A stretch of DNA of 46,078 nucleotides, taken from assembly GCA_049699975.1 (NCBI GenBank), contig JBNAWB010000003.1:1-46078 (forward strand), given 5' to 3'. Position 1 is the first letter of the stretch, and each line of letters begins with the position of its first letter. Position numbers and translations under genes: made by a program. The notes below the pieces were generated by a model. The model saw only the letters and a program-made list of their open reading frames with translations. It did no database searches and was not told where the DNA came from. The DNA is from Thermodesulfobacteriota bacterium. GTDB taxonomy: Bacteria > Desulfobacterota > SM23-61. Shown piece after piece: positions 361-6,596 of this stretch.

Positions 361-1359
361 ATGGAGCAGGAAGGATTTTATCTATTTAAAAAAGACCATC
401 TCAGTCACCTCCTGCAAAATCAGCAATATAAGGAAGCGCAAGAGGAAATTGAGAAGCGCTTACGCCTAAATCCTGATCAGCCTACCCTCAAAATTACCTT
501 GGCGGATATATACCTAAAATTAGGGCGCTTGAGCTCAGCTAAAATTATTCTCGAGGAAATTTTAACTGCCGATCCGCAAAACGAGCGAGCTTTATCCCTT
601 TTAGGAGATGTTTTTCTTAAAGAACAAAAGGCCCAAGAAGCCTTAAACTGTTATCGCCAAGCTTTCTTGCGCACTCCGCGGGAATATTATCTACTCCAGG
701 CCGCCCGGGCTTTGAAGAAGATGAATCGTTTGGAAGAAGCTCTCTTAGAGCTAGACAAAGTTTTAATCACCAAACCGCAGCATTTAACCTTCCTTAAAGA
801 AAAGGCCCTTATCCTTACCCGCCTGAAACGTTACGATCAGGCCTTAGTCATTTATGAAAAAATAAAAGAGCTTACCCCAGCGGATAATTTTGTGCAGAAG
901 GAGATCCTTCGTTTACGCAGTCTGCAGAAGCCAAAGTCCCAAGTACTCAAGGATCTGCAGATGGTCGTGGGGATGGAATCCAAAAAAGATGATGCCCAGA
1001 TGCATGGTCTTTTAGCCCAAAAGTTGAAAGATGCCGGGATGATTCGGGAAGCCATCGCCGAATATAAAATTGCCACCGCCTTAGATCCCCATAACCCCTA
1101 TTTCTTAAAACAACAGGGTTTTTGCCATTACCGCCAAAAGGAATACGACTTGGCCAGCAAGTGTTTGGAAGAAGCCCTCCGCCAAGATCCGGCGGATATT
1201 ATCGTGCGCAAGACTTTGGGTAAAATATTCACGATCACGGGGCAGTTAGAAAAATTTTTAACCTTGTTGGAAGAGATCTTCCAGCAGCATCCCGAGCAAA
1301 TTACCCTCTGGGGAACTATTAAAAGCTTACGCAAAAAATTAGGCAAAGATAAAAAATGA
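361..1359 (+). CDS. TPR (tetratricopeptide) repeat protein
   Basis: 332-aa ORF with repeated ~34-aa helical units that end in Asp-Pro turns (ILTADPQNERALSLLGDVF, ATALDPHNPYFLKQQGF, ALRQDPADIIVRK). It is on the same strand as the giant ATPase-PglZ ORF and 120 nt upstream of it. Confidence 0.8.
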   Translation: MEQEGFYLFKKDHLSHLLQNQQYKEAQEEIEKRLRLNPDQPTLKITLADIYLKLGRLSSAKIILEEILTADPQNERALSLLGDVFLKEQKAQEALNCYRQAFLRTPREYYLLQAARALKKMNRLEEALLELDKVLITKPQHLTFLKEKALILTRLKRYDQALVIYEKIKELTPADNFVQKEILRLRSLQKPKSQVLKDLQMVVGMESKKDDAQMHGLLAQKLKDAGMIREAIAEYKIATALDPHNPYFLKQQGFCHYRQKEYDLASKCLEEALRQDPADIIVRKTLGKIFTITGQLEKFLTLLEEIFQQHPEQITLWGTIKSLRKKLGKDKK

Positions 1360-1478
1360 GCTGGATGCCCGAGGGCAGAACAGAATAATAACCTTATTAA
1401 AAAGATAGCCGATCCATTCCCTTTTTGCTATCATATAAACCAGGTAAAGCTTAGGGCTAAAAAGGGAGAGGAATATTT

Positions 1479-4400
1479 ATGGTAGTTGGCGATCTTATCG
1501 AAGTTCCAGAAATTAAGACAGTCATCCAGTTAAAGGATATAGAGAAGCTGGAACTTCGGCAAATGATCCTGGATTCCTTTATTGTTACTGCGGAAGTGCG
1601 CCAAAATTTAGAAAAGATTTTTAACTCCCTCATAAAACCCACCGGAAGCGGCGCTTTTCTCAAAGGGCATTTTGGTTCAGGGAAATCGCATTTCTTGAGT
1701 ATCCTGAGCCTTCTTCTGCGCTACCCGACCGCCTGGCAAGTCATCTTAGAGCAAGACCCTTCTTTGAAAAATTTCCAAGAATTGTTAGTTCCTAAAAAAT
1801 TATTAGTAGCGGAAATCTCCTTGGTTCAGCATCGGGCTACGGAGTTTCTCGAAGATATTTTTCAGCAAGAAATTTTTCGAGAACTTGCTCGCCACGTAAC
1901 TCCATCTGAGGTGGGCCAAGCTTCCCGCAAAGAAACTTTCGCCGAGATCCAGAAACAAATTTTGGGTAGTGGATTTACCGGATTAGTTTTATTGGTGGAT
2001 GAGCTTTCTGAATTTCTTCGTTCGAAGACAGATGCTCATGCTTTTCAGGAGGATATTCGCTTTCTGCAGTTTTTAGGCGAGGAGGCCCCTTCTTTCCCTT
2101 TGTGGATCGTAGCTTCCTTGCAGGAGTGGATCGAAGAGACGGGGGATATAAATCAAGATACTTTTAATAAGATTAAAGACCGTTATCCAATTCGCCTCAA
2201 CTTGGGGCGGGCCCATATTGAAGAATTGATTTCTCACCGCTTAATCCGCCAAAAAAAGGGGGCAGGCGAAGAGATTAAGAAAATTTTCCAATCTTTACGG
2301 GGATATTTCCCATCTTTCCCTGTAGACGAAGCAAGATTTATTAAGCTTTATCCAGTGCATCCGGCCACTATTGCTCTTCTGGACCGTTTGAAGATTCTCT
2401 TCTCCGAACACCGCGGCGTGGTGGATTTTATCCATTCCCGACTAAAGGGTGATCAAGAACGAGGAATTCCTTCCCTCCTCGATAAACCAGCAACTACGTT
2501 GCTGGGTCCAGCCACGATTTTTGATCATTTTCTGCACCGCCTGCGGGAAATGGCTGAAACCCAGCCTTATATCGAAAAGGAATACGAATACTTTAGCGAA
2601 GAAATTCCGCGGATATTTAAAGATCCAGACCAACAAAAAGTAGCTCTGGAAGCGGTAAAAATTCTTATCTTAGCTGCCATCTCGCCCGTCAAAGTTAAAT
2701 ATAGCGTTAAGCATTTAACTGAAATGGTCCTTTTTCGAGTCACTGAGTTAGATACTGAGTTTAATTATCAGTATTTCCACGATCTCCTGGAACGTTTAGC
2801 TAAAGAGACGTCTTTTTTGGTGGTTGAACGAGGACCAGAACCAAAGCAAGATCATTTTGCCCTGGATTTGCGTTTGGATCTCCCTTCCCTTTTGCGCCGC
2901 AAAATTCGGCAAGTAGCTACTGAGATTTTTCCCAACGATCGGCGCCTTTTCACTCGCCTTTTGCCTTGGGCCGAGTCAACTTTAATTCCTCTGGCCGGCT
3001 GGGCCGAAAAGGGCCAGCAAAATGTTTTTGTCTCTTGGGAGTATTCCACCCGTAATGGCTTAATCTTACTGCGCCAGATTGATGAACTCCCTTGGGGCGA
3101 ACTGGAAAAGTTAGCGGCAGATTGGCAGCGGAGCGAAAATGACTTTTACCTTATTGTGGGTACAACCCTTAATGTGCCCCAACAACTAGCCCATTTACGT
3201 CAAGACCTTCTCCCTAAGGTGCAGGAGAAATTTCCTGGAATTTTTCTCTTCTGGATACCTGCCGCCCTCCCGGAAACAGAGGAAAAAGGGTTGAAAGAAA
3301 TATTGGCTACTTTATTACTGGCTGATAAGTATCAAGAGGAATCATCTCCGGGTCAAATTAAAGCCTTAGAATTTTTGCAAAGTCAACTGCAAAGCAACCG
3401 CCGCCGCCTGGGCGAGATCTTTACCGAAGCTTATTTTCATGGTCTCCTTTTAGATGATGAGCACCAAATTGAGTTAGCTAATTACGGATACCTCACCCAA
3501 GAAAAATTCTTGGAAGAATTTATCCGTCCTCTTCTTTCCCGCCGGTTCCCTAAACATAATCGGGTGCTTGCTTATTTGGAAGCTCTGCCTCCTTTTGCTA
3601 TTCCTAATCTCATCAGAGAATTCTTCGCCACCGGCCTGGTGGAAATAAACGACCGGACTAAGTTTGGCCTGCGCACGATCTTAGAAGATTTGCTTAAGCC
3701 TATGGGCTTAATAAAGAAAAAAGGGAACCAATATTTTCTCCATGTGGACCCCCGCACTAATGAATTAGCGGCCTCCTTTTTTTCTCTCTTAGATAAAGGA
3801 ATACAGTCCCTGGAAGATCTTTATTGGGTTCTGCGCAAAGGAGAATACGGTCTATTAAGAACCCAATTTGATATTATGGTGTTAGCTTTAATTTTTTCCG
3901 GAAATTTAATTCCCTATCAAGGGTCGCGAAAAAAAAGCTTAGAAGATATAGCCCGCCAGGGATTAGCGGGGATTACTTCTTTGGGAAAAGGGGAGATTTT
4001 AAGCGCTGAATTAAGAGAAGTAATCCCTGTTCATCCGCTTATTCCGGAAAACTTTCGCCGGGGCACTTTCACTCTGCCCTATCAGGAAGCTCTGTGGAAT
4101 GAATTAAAAGGGCGCAAAGAATTTGAGGTGGATACGCTGCGCAATTTACAACAAAAAATTCTTTGGGCGTCATCATTCCAGGCTTTCAAGAATATTCCTT
4201 GGGATTCTTTTCGGCAGGATGCGGAAGATATTTTGGCCCAATGGGCGGAAGTAAAAGTTAGCTTACCAGCTAAGGAGGGCTTGGAAAAATTTCTGGCTGC
4301 CTTGGCGCGCGAACCTTTCTTGGCCGCCAAACTAAGCCGCTTGGAAAAAATTAAAAAATTTTTTGATTATCAAGAAAGAATCCTGTTTGTCTATCAATAT

Positions 4401-6596
4401 ATTAACGATGCGCGCTTGGTTATCCCTGCCGAACCTAAATACGCATATCTAAGTTCCGAAAAAGAAGCTCTGCAGGACTTCTTTATTAAAGAAATAATTT
4501 CTATTGATCTGGAAAAGATAAAAGAACTTCTGCAGCGCTTCCATAACTTTCGGGAAAACTATATCCAGGCTTATGCTGAGGCCCACCGGCGCAATTGTTC
4601 CGGAGAGCAATTTGCTCCCTATGAGAGAGTGCGCCAATCGCGGCGCTATCAAATATTGAGTAAACTGGCGCAGATAGAAATAGTATCGGTACTTCACCAG
4701 CGGCAGGCTATAGATCAGTCTCTATTCAATATTCTTAAACGGCAATGCCCGGCCCTCTCCTTAGAAGCTCTGCAGAGAAATCCTACCTGTGCCTGCGGTT
4801 TTACCCTGGGGGAAAGTATTGCCCTTCCTTCTCTAAGAGAAATTGAAGAAGCCATCGACCAGGGCATCAAAGAGACTATGGAAACCTTGGCCTCTCCTCC
4901 TTACCAAGAAAAAATTCTTCCTTATCTGCACGGTCTGGAAGCAATAGGTGAAGGAGATAAATCGCAGGCCATCCGGCAATTTTTGGCTTTATCCTCCAGC
5001 CAAAGAAATTTCTTAGAAGAAATAGAACGGGTCCTCACTAACCAGGTAATTGAAGGGATTAATGAAGCTTTTCGCGGAAAAGTTGTTATCGTGGAACGTA
5101 ATTTAGACCAGCTTTATAAAGCTCTTCTCCATCGGAAATATACCATTACTCAAGTACGCAAAATTTTCCAAGAATGGTTACGCACCGAAGAATTGGCCGA
5201 ATCCACTTTTATCCATTTTACGGGCCAGGGTTATCTGGAAGATAGATCTTTGAACAAGCAAACGTTTTTATCATTGCTGGAAGATGAATTTCCCCATCTT
5301 CTTTCTTTGCTTCCTCAATGGGGGCCGCAGACTTTCCAGAAAGTGATACTTCTCAGTTTATGGAGGGAAGAAAACAAAATTTGCCCTCAGGAAGTTTTTC
5401 CTCTTTTTCCCTTCCTGCAAAAGGAAGGGACGGAAAAAGGCGAGCTGCTGCTGCAAGAATTTTCTCGGGCTGCTCAATCGCTGCGGCAGAAGGCCCCAAA
5501 CTTATTTTTCTCCCTGGCCAAAGAAGTGGAAACCCAGGAGGGATTTTTAGAAGAGATATGGCATATTTTGCGGAATAAACCTATTAACGAAATCTTTCAA
5601 CAAGAAAATATCTTCCCCGCTGTATTAAAAGAAGCCTTTGCTAAATTAATCGCTATCCTCCCTGAAAAAAAAGAAGAAGCCTTTTTGGGGGGAGAAATAA
5701 TAGGAGAAAACATAAATCCCGAGCCGCTGGCGCAAATGCGGGTCGAAATGGTGGAAATACTTAAAAATTACCAATTATTCGCTCAAAAATGGCAAGTGCT
5801 CAAACGTCGAGATGCCCATCCCCCTCAAGGCTTTACTAATTGGCAATCATTTTATATTGATCATTTGAGTCCTTTTGCCTACTTCCTCAAAATTCTTCCG
5901 GAGAAAGTCCAGCGGATGGAGATTAACCTTTCCGCGAATGAGCGAAAAAAATTACGCCAAGGCGAAGAGATAATTGCCTCCTTTAGCCAAAACTTTGCTG
6001 ACTTCTATCAGAAATCACTACCCCTGTGGGAAACCGGGCAAGAAAAAAGGCCTCTTTTCATCGAAGATCTGCCCGCCCTCAATCCTTGGAAAAGAAGAAC
6101 CCTGGAAGGTAAGAGAAAGGTTTACATTCTCCTCGACGGACTGCGTTGGGATTTATGGGTTTATCTAAAAGAAAATTTCTTTAAAGGCTTGAGTGATCAA
6201 GTTCGAATTATCAGTGAAGGAGTAATCTGGACCCACTTGCCATCCTCGACGCCTAGACAAATGGAATTTTTTACAGAAGCGCGCCGCCGCACATCTGCCA
6301 GCACCGCCCAGGCAGAAGATTTTTGGCATTTGGAAGGCATAGATGAAAGAGTGCACACCGAAAAGGGCGGGTTAGAATACCTTTTCCGGAATATCCTGCA
6401 ATATCTCCAATTGGCTTTAACTCCCCGCTTGCAAGAACTACCCGCTCAGACTTATCTCCTCTTTTTCTCTGATCATGGTTTCATAGAGAATCCGCATTTT
6501 TCGGCCGATGATAAATACCGCTCTTCTCGCTACCTTCATGGTGAAGCTTCCCCCTTTGAAGTCATCGTCCCTTGGGCAGCGGCCATAAAAATTTGA
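1479..6596 (+). CDS. Giant (1705 aa) P-loop NTPase (BrxC/PglY/DUF6079-like N-terminus) fused to a C-terminal PglZ-type alkaline-phosphatase-fold domain
   Basis: Uninterrupted 5.1-kb ORF with RBS GGGAGAGG 7 nt upstream. Walker A GHFGSGKSH at nt 1665-1688. Walker B LVLLVDE at nt 1986-2003. YPVHPATIALLDRLKILFSEHRGVVDFI at nt 2346-2432. The C-terminal ~160 aa carry ILLDGLRWD (D at 6135), LPSSTP (T at 6249), IDERVH (6342-6356) and FFSDHGF (6471-6479). Confidence 0.85.
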   Translation: MVVGDLIEVPEIKTVIQLKDIEKLELRQMILDSFIVTAEVRQNLEKIFNSLIKPTGSGAFLKGHFGSGKSHFLSILSLLLRYPTAWQVILEQDPSLKNFQELLVPKKLLVAEISLVQHRATEFLEDIFQQEIFRELARHVTPSEVGQASRKETFAEIQKQILGSGFTGLVLLVDELSEFLRSKTDAHAFQEDIRFLQFLGEEAPSFPLWIVASLQEWIEETGDINQDTFNKIKDRYPIRLNLGRAHIEELISHRLIRQKKGAGEEIKKIFQSLRGYFPSFPVDEARFIKLYPVHPATIALLDRLKILFSEHRGVVDFIHSRLKGDQERGIPSLLDKPATTLLGPATIFDHFLHRLREMAETQPYIEKEYEYFSEEIPRIFKDPDQQKVALEAVKILILAAISPVKVKYSVKHLTEMVLFRVTELDTEFNYQYFHDLLERLAKETSFLVVERGPEPKQDHFALDLRLDLPSLLRRKIRQVATEIFPNDRRLFTRLLPWAESTLIPLAGWAEKGQQNVFVSWEYSTRNGLILLRQIDELPWGELEKLAADWQRSENDFYLIVGTTLNVPQQLAHLRQDLLPKVQEKFPGIFLFWIPAALPETEEKGLKEILATLLLADKYQEESSPGQIKALEFLQSQLQSNRRRLGEIFTEAYFHGLLLDDEHQIELANYGYLTQEKFLEEFIRPLLSRRFPKHNRVLAYLEALPPFAIPNLIREFFATGLVEINDRTKFGLRTILEDLLKPMGLIKKKGNQYFLHVDPRTNELAASFFSLLDKGIQSLEDLYWVLRKGEYGLLRTQFDIMVLALIFSGNLIPYQGSRKKSLEDIARQGLAGITSLGKGEILSAELREVIPVHPLIPENFRRGTFTLPYQEALWNELKGRKEFEVDTLRNLQQKILWASSFQAFKNIPWDSFRQDAEDILAQWAEVKVSLPAKEGLEKFLAALAREPFLAAKLSRLEKIKKFFDYQERILFVYQYINDARLVIPAEPKYAYLSSEKEALQDFFIKEIISIDLEKIKELLQRFHNFRENYIQAYAEAHRRNCSGEQFAPYERVRQSRRYQILSKLAQIEIVSVLHQRQAIDQSLFNILKRQCPALSLEALQRNPTCACGFTLGESIALPSLREIEEAIDQGIKETMETLASPPYQEKILPYLHGLEAIGEGDKSQAIRQFLALSSSQRNFLEEIERVLTNQVIEGINEAFRGKVVIVERNLDQLYKALLHRKYTITQVRKIFQEWLRTEELAESTFIHFTGQGYLEDRSLNKQTFLSLLEDEFPHLLSLLPQWGPQTFQKVILLSLWREENKICPQEVFPLFPFLQKEGTEKGELLLQEFSRAAQSLRQKAPNLFFSLAKEVETQEGFLEEIWHILRNKPINEIFQQENIFPAVLKEAFAKLIAILPEKKEEAFLGGEIIGENINPEPLAQMRVEMVEILKNYQLFAQKWQVLKRRDAHPPQGFTNWQSFYIDHLSPFAYFLKILPEKVQRMEINLSANERKKLRQGEEIIASFSQNFADFYQKSLPLWETGQEKRPLFIEDLPALNPWKRRTLEGKRKVYILLDGLRWDLWVYLKENFFKGLSDQVRIISEGVIWTHLPSSTPRQMEFFTEARRRTSASTAQAEDFWHLEGIDERVHTEKGGLEYLFRNILQYLQLALTPRLQELPAQTYLLFFSDHGFIENPHFSADDKYRSSRYLHGEASPFEVIVPWAAAIKI

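Follow-up and report, generated by a model that had tools for sequence, protein, structure and literature searches.

Recent work on how bacteriophage exclusion (BREX) blocks phage replication favours a BrxB-BrxC-PglZ core with PglZ as a nuclease. BrxB, BrxC and PglZ form a core complex in which ATP controls the assembly of BrxC and its binding to DNA (PMC13326643). Besides cleaving oligonucleotides, BREX PglZ nicks DNA and makes it linear, and mutation of its T538 and H741, or of the equivalent residues of PorX, abolishes or alters nuclease activity (PMC12205998). The PglZ domain of PorX cleaves both cyclic and linear oligonucleotides (cited in PMC12205998). Only one BrxC/PglZ system without a methyltransferase appears in PMC12839542, and it is centred on HerA/FtsK and built from seven genes that encode separate proteins. 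Here we describe a gene at positions 1479-6596 of a 46,078-nucleotide stretch of DNA from a Thermodesulfobacteriota bacterium (assembly GCA_049699975.1, contig JBNAWB010000003.1, positions 1 to 46,078), hereafter the window, which joins a BrxC-type ATPase to a PglZ-type domain in one polypeptide. Together with an upstream tetratricopeptide repeat (TPR) gene it makes up a two-gene, methyltransferase-less module derived from BREX: a TPR protein and a BrxC-type AAA+ ATPase joined to a small PglZ domain. The architecture, homologies, invariance of catalytic residues, purifying selection and gene linkage of this module were established by computation, and from them we infer what its activity and biological role may be.

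A BrxC-type ATPase joined to a PglZ-type domain

The fused gene is a real and intact open reading frame (ORF) of 1705 amino acids (aa) on the + strand, as an initial annotation made from the sequence had reported, and the motif positions given there were correct to within one codon. Walker A, GHFGSGKSH, occupies aa 63-71 (nt 1665-1691), Walker B, LVLLVDE, occupies aa 169-175 (nt 1983-2003), and the YPVHP...RGVVDFI segment begins at about nt 2349; the positions of D1553, T1591, D1622, H1626 and D1665-H1666 agree with those listed before. The domain map below draws on two AlphaFold2 (AF2) models, covering aa 300-1300 (predicted local distance difference test, pLDDT, 73) and aa 1236-1705 (pLDDT 78), both of which were compared with the PDB by Foldseek. 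Ratios of nonsynonymous to synonymous substitution (dN/dS) come from three comparisons of the window with related loci L011, L009 and L010, all inside a subclade that lacks RecQ.

1479..6596, + strand: fused BrxC-PglZ gene, 1705 aa; intact ORF, dN/dS 0.09-0.10 against L011, L009 and L010
1479..2474, + strand: AAA+ ATPase module of BrxC/DUF6079 type, aa 1-332; Pfam PF19557, PADLOC BrxC and PDB BrxC entries
2475..4241, + strand: middle region, aa 333-921; helical-bundle, beta-hairpin/winged helix-turn-helix (wHTH)-like and alpha/beta segments in the AF2 model
4242..5183, + strand: C-terminal part of the DUF6079 body, aa 922-1235, long helices/coiled coil; PF19557 and AF2
4746..4796, + strand: Cys trio C1090-x13-C1104-x-C1106-G, lying in a loop flanked by long helices; conserved in all 25 aligned relatives
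5184..6098, + strand: helical linker, aa 1236-1540, the most variable part of the protein; all-helical in the AF2 model, dN/dS 0.15
6099..6593, + strand: predicted minimal PglZ-type domain of alkaline-phosphatase fold, aa 1541-1705; Foldseek, family hidden Markov model (HMM) and seven invariant residues
+ strand, codons of the putative PglZ catalytic residues: D1553 at 6135, T1591 at 6249, D1622 at 6342, H1626 at 6354, D1665-H1666 at 6471-6476, H1687 at 6537

Residue invariance was assessed in an alignment of 25 full-length relatives with identities down to 27%. G63, G66, G68, K69, S70 and H71 of Walker A are invariant, as are D174 and E175 of Walker B and R312, G313, D316 and F317 of the RGVVDF helix. 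The same is true in the PglZ part for D1553, T1591, D1622, H1626, D1665 and H1666, to which the alignment adds H1687. Because they are invariant over this range of divergence, the motifs are selected features and not chance strings. Selection on the gene is purifying throughout: dN/dS is 0.05-0.07 in the ATPase, 0.08 in the middle region, 0.15 in the linker and 0.10-0.12 in the PglZ part. With values of about 0.1 throughout the fused gene, even inside the RecQ-less subclade, no domain stands out as fast-evolving.

The N-terminal part of the protein is related to BrxC. Residues 1-332 match positions 1-334 of PF19557 (DUF6079; BrxC-PglY_N in newer Pfam) with 177.7 bits (E 3.3e-52; gathering cut-off 23 bits). 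PADLOC BrxC models match the fused protein with E down to 7.7e-42, and a family profile searched against the PDB picks up three solved BrxC structures (9zn5, 9zll, 9zdx) with E of about 2e-17 to 2e-15. These matches bear out the resemblance to BrxC/PglY and DUF6079 that had been noticed for the N-terminus. The two Walker motifs also have the form required of a BrxC-type AAA+ ATPase, GxxGxGKS and hhhhDE, respectively. Additionally, residues 922-1235 align with positions 920-1222 of the 1238-position PF19557 model (E 2.9e-15). Since this is the end of the DUF6079 model, a complete BrxC-type body lies ahead of the C-terminal extension, and the 1200 aa in which the initial annotation had found no recognisable motif apart from the Cys trio are now partly assigned. 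Sequence identity to canonical DUF6079 proteins is about 25% and is confined to the ATPase region. Both NCBIfam models score far below their cut-offs (BrxC, NF033441, 76.8 bits against 400; PglY, NF047891, 28.7 against 1700), and thus the fused protein is a relative of BrxC, not an equivalog of BrxC or PglY.

After the ATPase, BrxC has a wHTH domain, an alpha+beta domain, a further wHTH domain and a long coiled coil with an apical subdomain (PMC12839542). The secondary structure of the AF2 model of aa 300-1300 is compatible with this published layout. No PDB entry came up below 1e-3 when this 1001-aa model was searched with Foldseek; the solved BrxC entries 9zdx and 9zn5, which sequence search had matched, were not among the hits and may be newer than the library copy. 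The long helices also carry the Cys trio, which has the general form C-x13/14-C-x-C-G. Of about 25 TPR-linked members that span the region, both unfused ones (L081 and L089) among them, all but L086 (a C-x-C-N variant) keep it. None of about 85 canonical BrxC ORFs of about 1200 aa that we scanned has it, the BREX-3 example included. Thus the family is a distinct clade with a signature of its own.

The C-terminal 165 aa or so make up, judging by the AF2 model, a PglZ-type domain of alkaline-phosphatase fold, with Asp, Thr, Asp-x3-His, Asp-His and His in that order. All 11 PDB matches of the model at E<=1e-3 are PorX (E 4e-6 to 1e-4), and profiles searched against PDB sequences reach PorX at 5e-4 in one search and 1e-6 in another. 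The linker (aa 1236-1540) aligns with the helical linker ahead of the PglZ domain of PorX. When a genuine BREX PglZ is used as the query, it likewise finds only PorX in the PDB; the PorX match therefore marks the PglZ domain family and no special tie to PorX. An HMM of the PglZ core, built from 13 fused members, matches ORFs of about 970 aa that follow BrxC-like genes in two unrelated metagenome loci (L114, 2.5e-15; L106, 1.4e-10), and these ORFs pass the Pfam PglZ cut-off and are genuine PglZ. By motif order and the structural match to PorX, we judge T1591 to be the counterpart of PorX T272 and of T538 in Escherichia fergusonii PglZ. H1687 may correspond to the PorX histidine equated with H500 and to H741 of PglZ, as the PorX alignment and its own invariance weakly suggest.

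Several results argue against a PglZ assignment. The Pfam PglZ model (PF08665; gathering cut-off 25 bits) does not match the window protein even at E<=10. On the C-termini of 10 aligned relatives it reaches E 0.3 in one, with otherwise weak Phosphodiest and PglZ matches; a few homologs carry a precomputed PF08665 match. No PADLOC PglZ model matches the fused protein either, and the domain is small, at about 165 aa against about 290 aa for the canonical PglZ core. The AF2 model gives it five strands, with a helical linker ahead of it as in PorX and BREX PglZ. Because the Pfam model missed the C-terminus, the assignment rests on the predicted structure, the family HMM and the catalytic residues. 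The PglZ claim of the initial annotation thus agrees with the fold, the residue order and the family HMM while failing the Pfam profile check, and its central proposal, a BrxC/PglY-like ATPase fused to a PglZ-type domain, holds.

Stand-alone proteins of 470-630 aa (P0229; L012 8001-9566) combine the linker with a PglZ-like core (profile E 1e-12 to 1e-15) and have no receiver domain. The one whose surroundings we examined, P0229, has neither a BrxC nor a TPR neighbour, and we therefore rejected these proteins of about 500 aa as a split form of the system. By sequence they appear to be another uncharacterised family of PglZ-domain proteins.

Family, TPR partner and neighbouring genes

Hundreds of full-length relatives of about 1700 aa, from uncultured anaerobes, are present in the protein database at 45-89% identity, annotated only as DUF6079 or hypothetical. 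Their named sources, mostly of one phylum, are metagenome-assembled genomes (MAGs) labelled Thermodesulfobacteriota, 'Deltaproteobacteria', Desulfobacteraceae or Syntrophaceae. The closest genome locus, L011, comes from a Syntrophaceae MAG, has 92% identity and was the sole return of a single-protein scan of GTDB genomes. A profile search of 1.8 billion representatives found further fused clusters of 1650-2030 aa, and looking up 10 distant representatives gave few names, Deltaproteobacteria and Peptococcaceae, the latter for one fused cluster.

Locus contexts were retrieved, and 156 loci were scanned with our own HMMs. For comparison we used 112 canonical BrxC loci, of which 56 are viral and 56 metagenomic. 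The genes and elements outside the fused gene to which the text refers are as follows.

361..1359, + strand: TPR partner gene, 332 aa, all TPR repeats, no signal peptide; Pfam TPR families at 1e-25
1426..1436, + strand: conserved -10-like block TGCTATCATAT, TGCTAT(C/T)ATAT; invariant columns in the window, L009, L010 and L011
6599..7120, - strand: RimI-like GNAT acetyltransferase gene, convergent with the fused ORF and two bases from it; intact in the window, L009, L010 and L011
8934..15700, - strand: Flx/Hdr-type electron-transfer cluster (FAD/NAD-binding, 4Fe-4S, FlpD/MvhD-like, HdrA-like and CCG-domain (HdrB-like) genes)

For the fused gene, the TPR gene is an obligate partner. Of about 32 family loci that could be assessed, 30 have an ortholog of about 330 aa beside the fused gene, and none stands beside canonical BrxC in the 112 comparison loci. 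It lies mostly immediately upstream on the same strand, with two divergent placements and two at a distance of 1-1.5 kb, and the linkage extends to members of only 26-34% identity, so that the same two-gene layout recurs in distant lineages. Genes overlap or abut in some loci (TPR, RecQ and fused gene in L007; TPR and fused gene in L015). The TPR protein aligns without gaps to the L015 copy (30% identity over 312 aa), is 28% identical to the Peptococcaceae copy, and evolves under purifying selection (dN/dS 0.07). The sole exceptions to the linkage are L080 (1-2192) and L095 (1-2408), one of them 70% identical to the window protein, where the 2.2-2.4 kb upstream contain no TPR or RecQ match. 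Both neighbours named at the outset, the TPR gene and the convergent GNAT gene, are where they had been placed; the TPR gene, which had been listed as a neighbour, is now to be read as a partner.

Most relatives also have a helicase. A complete RecQ of about 770-800 aa (DEAD, Helicase_C, RecQ_Zn_bind, RQC and HRDC) stands between the TPR and fused genes in 10 loci, in some of which, such as L007, start and stop codons overlap. It lies directly upstream of the fused gene in two more, L077 and L088, where the TPR region is cut off, which brings RecQ to 12 loci. An SNF2 helicase replaces RecQ or accompanies it in L002, L084 and L096. The earlier statement that no helicase is visible thus holds for the window subclade and not for the family, which usually has RecQ, or SNF2 nearby. 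The SNF2 genes of L002 (15260-18016) and L084 (2291-4984) flank the module and encode a SWIM-like Cys/His motif. They are 58% identical over 884 aa, while the fused proteins of these two loci share 29% and the TPR proteins 22%; a weaker SNF2 relative lies upstream in L096. At 7594-9999 of L003, where RecQ lies between the TPR gene and the fused gene, its coding sequence is broken up into four successive ORFs, which could be frameshifts from assembly error or early pseudogenisation.

RecQ is absent from the window, L009 (87% identity), L010 (81%) and L011 (92%), and present in L007 (73%); it is also absent from Peptococcaceae and other distant members. L007 and L010 have the same flanking genes, with Fe-ADH, AFOR and radical SAM genes upstream and GNAT and Zn-ribbon genes downstream, and the window, truncated on its upstream side, has the downstream genes in common with both. 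Since RecQ-bearing L007 has the same flanks as L010, the window subclade has lost RecQ from a stable position in the chromosome. A tblastn search of the 46-kb window with RecQ found nothing, and so the gene has not simply moved within these 46 kb. The place that RecQ takes in relatives is here a 119-nt spacer (1360-1478), which holds the -10-like block. This block may be an internal promoter for the fused gene, although a scan of the window for promoter and terminator consensus stayed at chance level.

No methyltransferase was found among the 23 window ORFs that we scanned with Pfam, a set which includes most of the large ones, and the roughly 15 related loci with Pfam-annotated neighbouring genes have no conserved one. 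The absence of a methyltransferase, on which the initial annotation had remarked, is therefore a property of these loci as well as of the window. Exceptions occur in three loci and are not conserved: L003 has a small-molecule methyltransferase, L008 has the S subunit of a type I restriction-modification (RM) system, and in L081 a type II RM pair adjoins the unfused member. The 23 window ORFs likewise include no helicase, no known defence protein and no modification enzyme (PglX/BrxX, or the BrxP of type 4), and no modification enzyme is conserved in the annotated loci. BrxA, BrxB, BrxL, BrxF, PglW and BrxD are missing from the Pfam neighbour lists of the annotated loci and the window. PADLOC was run on three proteins: the fused one matched BrxC and SspC models and no others, and those of the TPR and GNAT genes had only weak matches to PDC-M and TPR models.

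About six of the roughly 15 annotated contexts have RM, toxin-antitoxin or PsyrTA genes, and the remainder are metabolic. Toxin-antitoxin pairs occur in L002, L004 and L017. In L087 (11607-15545), a fused member of 26% identity is followed about 2.4 kb downstream by a PsyrT-type helicase gene (PADLOC 1.9e-221) and a DprA-like gene, which look like a PsyrTA-type defence pair. In L081 (344-6483), the unfused member, of 1354 aa, has the Cys motif and no PglZ tail. Its gene is directly followed by the type II RM pair (N6_N4_Mtase and EcoO109I) and then by a class I Glu/Gln-tRNA synthetase gene, with no separate PglZ in the 6 kb downstream.

The GNAT gene survives as a 68-aa remnant in L007 and is otherwise intact in the window, L009, L010 and L011; it is for this reason a lineage-specific neighbour. 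L007 keeps RecQ and yet has the remnant, and we rejected the idea that GNAT arrived together with the loss of RecQ. Further downstream, the Flx/Hdr cluster fits an origin in a syntrophic deltaproteobacterium. Scanning the window for Rfam elements and tRNAs found none.

Possible roles of the module

We favour a role in restricting invading or replicating foreign DNA, and we give this reading an even chance. By binding and hydrolysing ATP, the AAA+ domain would, as in canonical BrxC, regulate both self-association and the attachment to DNA through the wHTH and coiled-coil body. The three-cysteine loop between the long helices may hold a metal and help to pair the helical arms; for the apical subdomain of BrxC, pairing of the arms was suggested by analogy with Zn hooks (PMC12839542). 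On its variable helical linker, the PglZ domain would cleave DNA or oligonucleotides where the protein is bound, by means of T1591 and the Asp/His metal ligands. Type I BREX has BrxB to connect BrxC with PglZ; here the covalent link would take over that function, and a BrxB-like bridge would be unnecessary. The TPR protein may be a regulatory or sensing subunit. RecQ (or SNF2) would supply unwinding in most relatives, and the window lineage would operate without an adjacent helicase. As there is no methyltransferase, target choice and self-discrimination would not be epigenetic and would instead depend on the structure of the DNA or a signal that the TPR protein detects. Restriction is favoured by the descent of the parts from BREX, by a helicase partner that varies as it does in BREX, by the dispensability of RecQ, and by the RM, PsyrTA or toxin-antitoxin genes near some members.

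Much of what surrounds the gene weighs against restriction, as do the missing Pfam and PADLOC PglZ matches and the small size of the PglZ part described above. Around the module, the window carries genes of core metabolism for Hdr/Flx-like redox proteins, thiolase and CoA ligases, together with sensor kinases and similar functions, and synteny is kept between relatives whose proteins share 73-92% identity. Searches of 72,556 plasmids, 50,697 phages and the IMG/VR contigs turned up no full-length member. The middle region is as conserved as the ATPase, in contrast to canonical BrxC, in which the alpha+beta and downstream wHTH domains are reported to be highly variable (PMC12839542). Metabolic flanks, synteny, absence from the plasmids, phages and viral contigs searched and a conserved middle fit a host-directed function better than an arms race. 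The compact, BREX-derived machine for defence or nucleic-acid surveillance that the initial annotation proposed has kept its BREX descent and its lack of a methyltransferase, while its defence part is put in doubt by the metabolic flanks, the synteny and the absence of a fast-evolving region.

The same observations favour a domesticated BREX core for host genome maintenance, a vertically inherited TPR/RecQ/BrxC-PglZ module acting on aberrant host DNA, which we regard as possible but rather doubtful. Such a module would recognise stalled forks, recombination intermediates or ends, which RecQ would unwind and the PglZ nuclease would process. Its usual partner is indeed a full RecQ with the domain layout of a housekeeping recombination helicase, and synteny extends to relatives with saturated synonymous sites (dS >2 against L007). 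The metabolic flanks are found at most loci and across the whole 46 kb, dN/dS is uniformly low, the TPR partner still aligns gap-free at 30% identity, and the named sources of a family unseen on plasmids, phages and viral contigs belong mostly to one phylum, Thermodesulfobacteriota. However, BrxC and PglZ are known only from defence systems, with the exception of PglZ in the PorX response regulator. RecQ is also dispensable in the window subclade, in Peptococcaceae and in other distant members, where the two core genes nonetheless remain under purifying selection; exchange of the helicase (RecQ, SNF2 or none) is typical of defence modules, and RM, PsyrTA or toxin-antitoxin genes lie beside some loci. 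That a domesticated TPR-(RecQ)-BrxC::PglZ module of Thermodesulfobacteriota and some other anaerobes processes host replication forks or recombination intermediates is, in this specific form, somewhat unlikely. If domestication were true, the BrxC-PglZ pair would for the first time be seen in a role other than defence, and BREX restriction would have evolved from, or into, a DNA-structure-sensing repair machine.

A nucleotide-signal processor, in which a PorX-like PglZ hydrolyses cyclic or linear oligonucleotides and the ATPase body and TPR protein serve as sensor or scaffold, seems improbable to us. PorX, which cleaves such oligonucleotides, accounts for the only solved structures matched by the PglZ part, and this part is minimal, without the extra DNA-binding parts of BREX PglZ; stand-alone relatives of about 500 aa also exist outside any BrxC context. 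The PorX match is, however, unspecific, as a genuine BREX PglZ gives the same result, and BREX PglZ also nicks and linearises DNA (PMC12205998). The domain is moreover fused to a DNA-binding BrxC body linked to DNA helicases, and neither a cyclase gene nor any other gene that would produce a signal is conserved near the module in related loci. Still more improbable, to the point that we give it hardly any weight, is a decaying, functionless BREX remnant which has lost its methyltransferase and other genes. The absence of RecQ here against the family norm, and the RecQ split in L003, would suit such decay. The 1705-codon ORF is nevertheless intact with all catalytic residues retained, dN/dS is 0.09-0.10 in three comparisons inside the very subclade that lacks RecQ, and lineages at 26-34% identity keep the same two-gene layout. 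These data on selection and conservation led us to reject a pseudogene or relic.

Should the module defend its host by restriction, the BrxC-PglZ pair would be a self-sufficient restriction engine that needs no epigenetic self-mark, and a two-gene system would be at hand for biochemistry and cryo-electron microscopy. Should it not, BREX parts would be seen in housekeeping use for the first time. The family is a natural experiment in which BrxC and PglZ have been welded together, the methyltransferase and the other BREX genes are gone and the two catalytic centres have stayed the same across deeply diverged members. In both cases a domain map, a partner gene and catalytic residues open to testing become available for about a thousand database proteins so far labelled only 'DUF6079' or 'hypothetical'.

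Comparison with known systems

The locus is clearly BREX-derived, with an arrangement not found in the literature that we searched. No paper was retrieved for 'BrxC-PglZ', and the papers found make no mention of the fusion, the TPR partner or RecQ; the few returned for PglZ with RecQ or tetratricopeptide looked unrelated, going by their titles and abstracts. In NAR, the 2026 survey of BREX diversity (PMC12839542) mentions neither TPR, RecQ, Desulfo- taxa nor 'PglZ fused'. The view that this is not a described system fits the papers searched, and PADLOC 2.0 recognises the BrxC half only. Because it has no modification enzyme and no accessory genes, the locus falls outside BREX types 1-6.

Similar to the module described here, the HerA/FtsK-centred system combines DUF6079 and PglZ outside canonical BREX and without PglX. 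None of its seven separate genes (STAND, DUF4007, HerA/FtsK, TGT and others) was found here, and its PglZ is a separate protein that keeps an N-terminal inactive helicase domain, from which the fused protein differs. Both have a GNAT gene, but GNAT beside the fused gene is confined to the window's own clade, and the sharing is probably coincidence. PorX (PDB 7PVA, 8TFM and others) is the best match in structure and in PDB sequence for the C-terminal linker and PglZ part and has the same order of metal ligands and Thr. Unlike PorX, the fused protein has no receiver domain (no Response_reg match, with an AAA+ ATPase at the N-terminus) and no type IX secretion context, and it carries an attached ATPase of 1235 aa.

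Among the closest known systems is BREX type 3, which consists of BrxF, BrxC (DUF6079), the methyltransferase PglXI, the SNF2 helicase BrxHII and PglZ. BrxC of a BREX-3 plasmid example is annotated by NCBI as DUF6079, the Pfam family of the fused protein, and the module resembles BREX-3 further in its PglZ domain and, in some relatives, its SNF2 helicase. It differs in lacking a methyltransferase, BrxF and BrxA, in having BrxC and PglZ in a single polypeptide, and in its obligate TPR partner. Its usual helicase is RecQ, its PglZ part is without the N-terminal inactive helicase-like and HTH parts, and it has the three-cysteine motif.

The type I BREX core of BrxB, BrxC and PglZ (PMC13326643, PMC12205998) offers a further comparison. 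In contrast to that core, the association here is covalent, and there is no BrxB-like gene and no PglX, BrxA or BrxL. The same two catalytic partners are nevertheless physically joined in both, the Walker motifs are intact, and T538 and H741 of PglZ appear to be kept as T1591 and, on a weak PorX alignment together with its invariance, as H1687.

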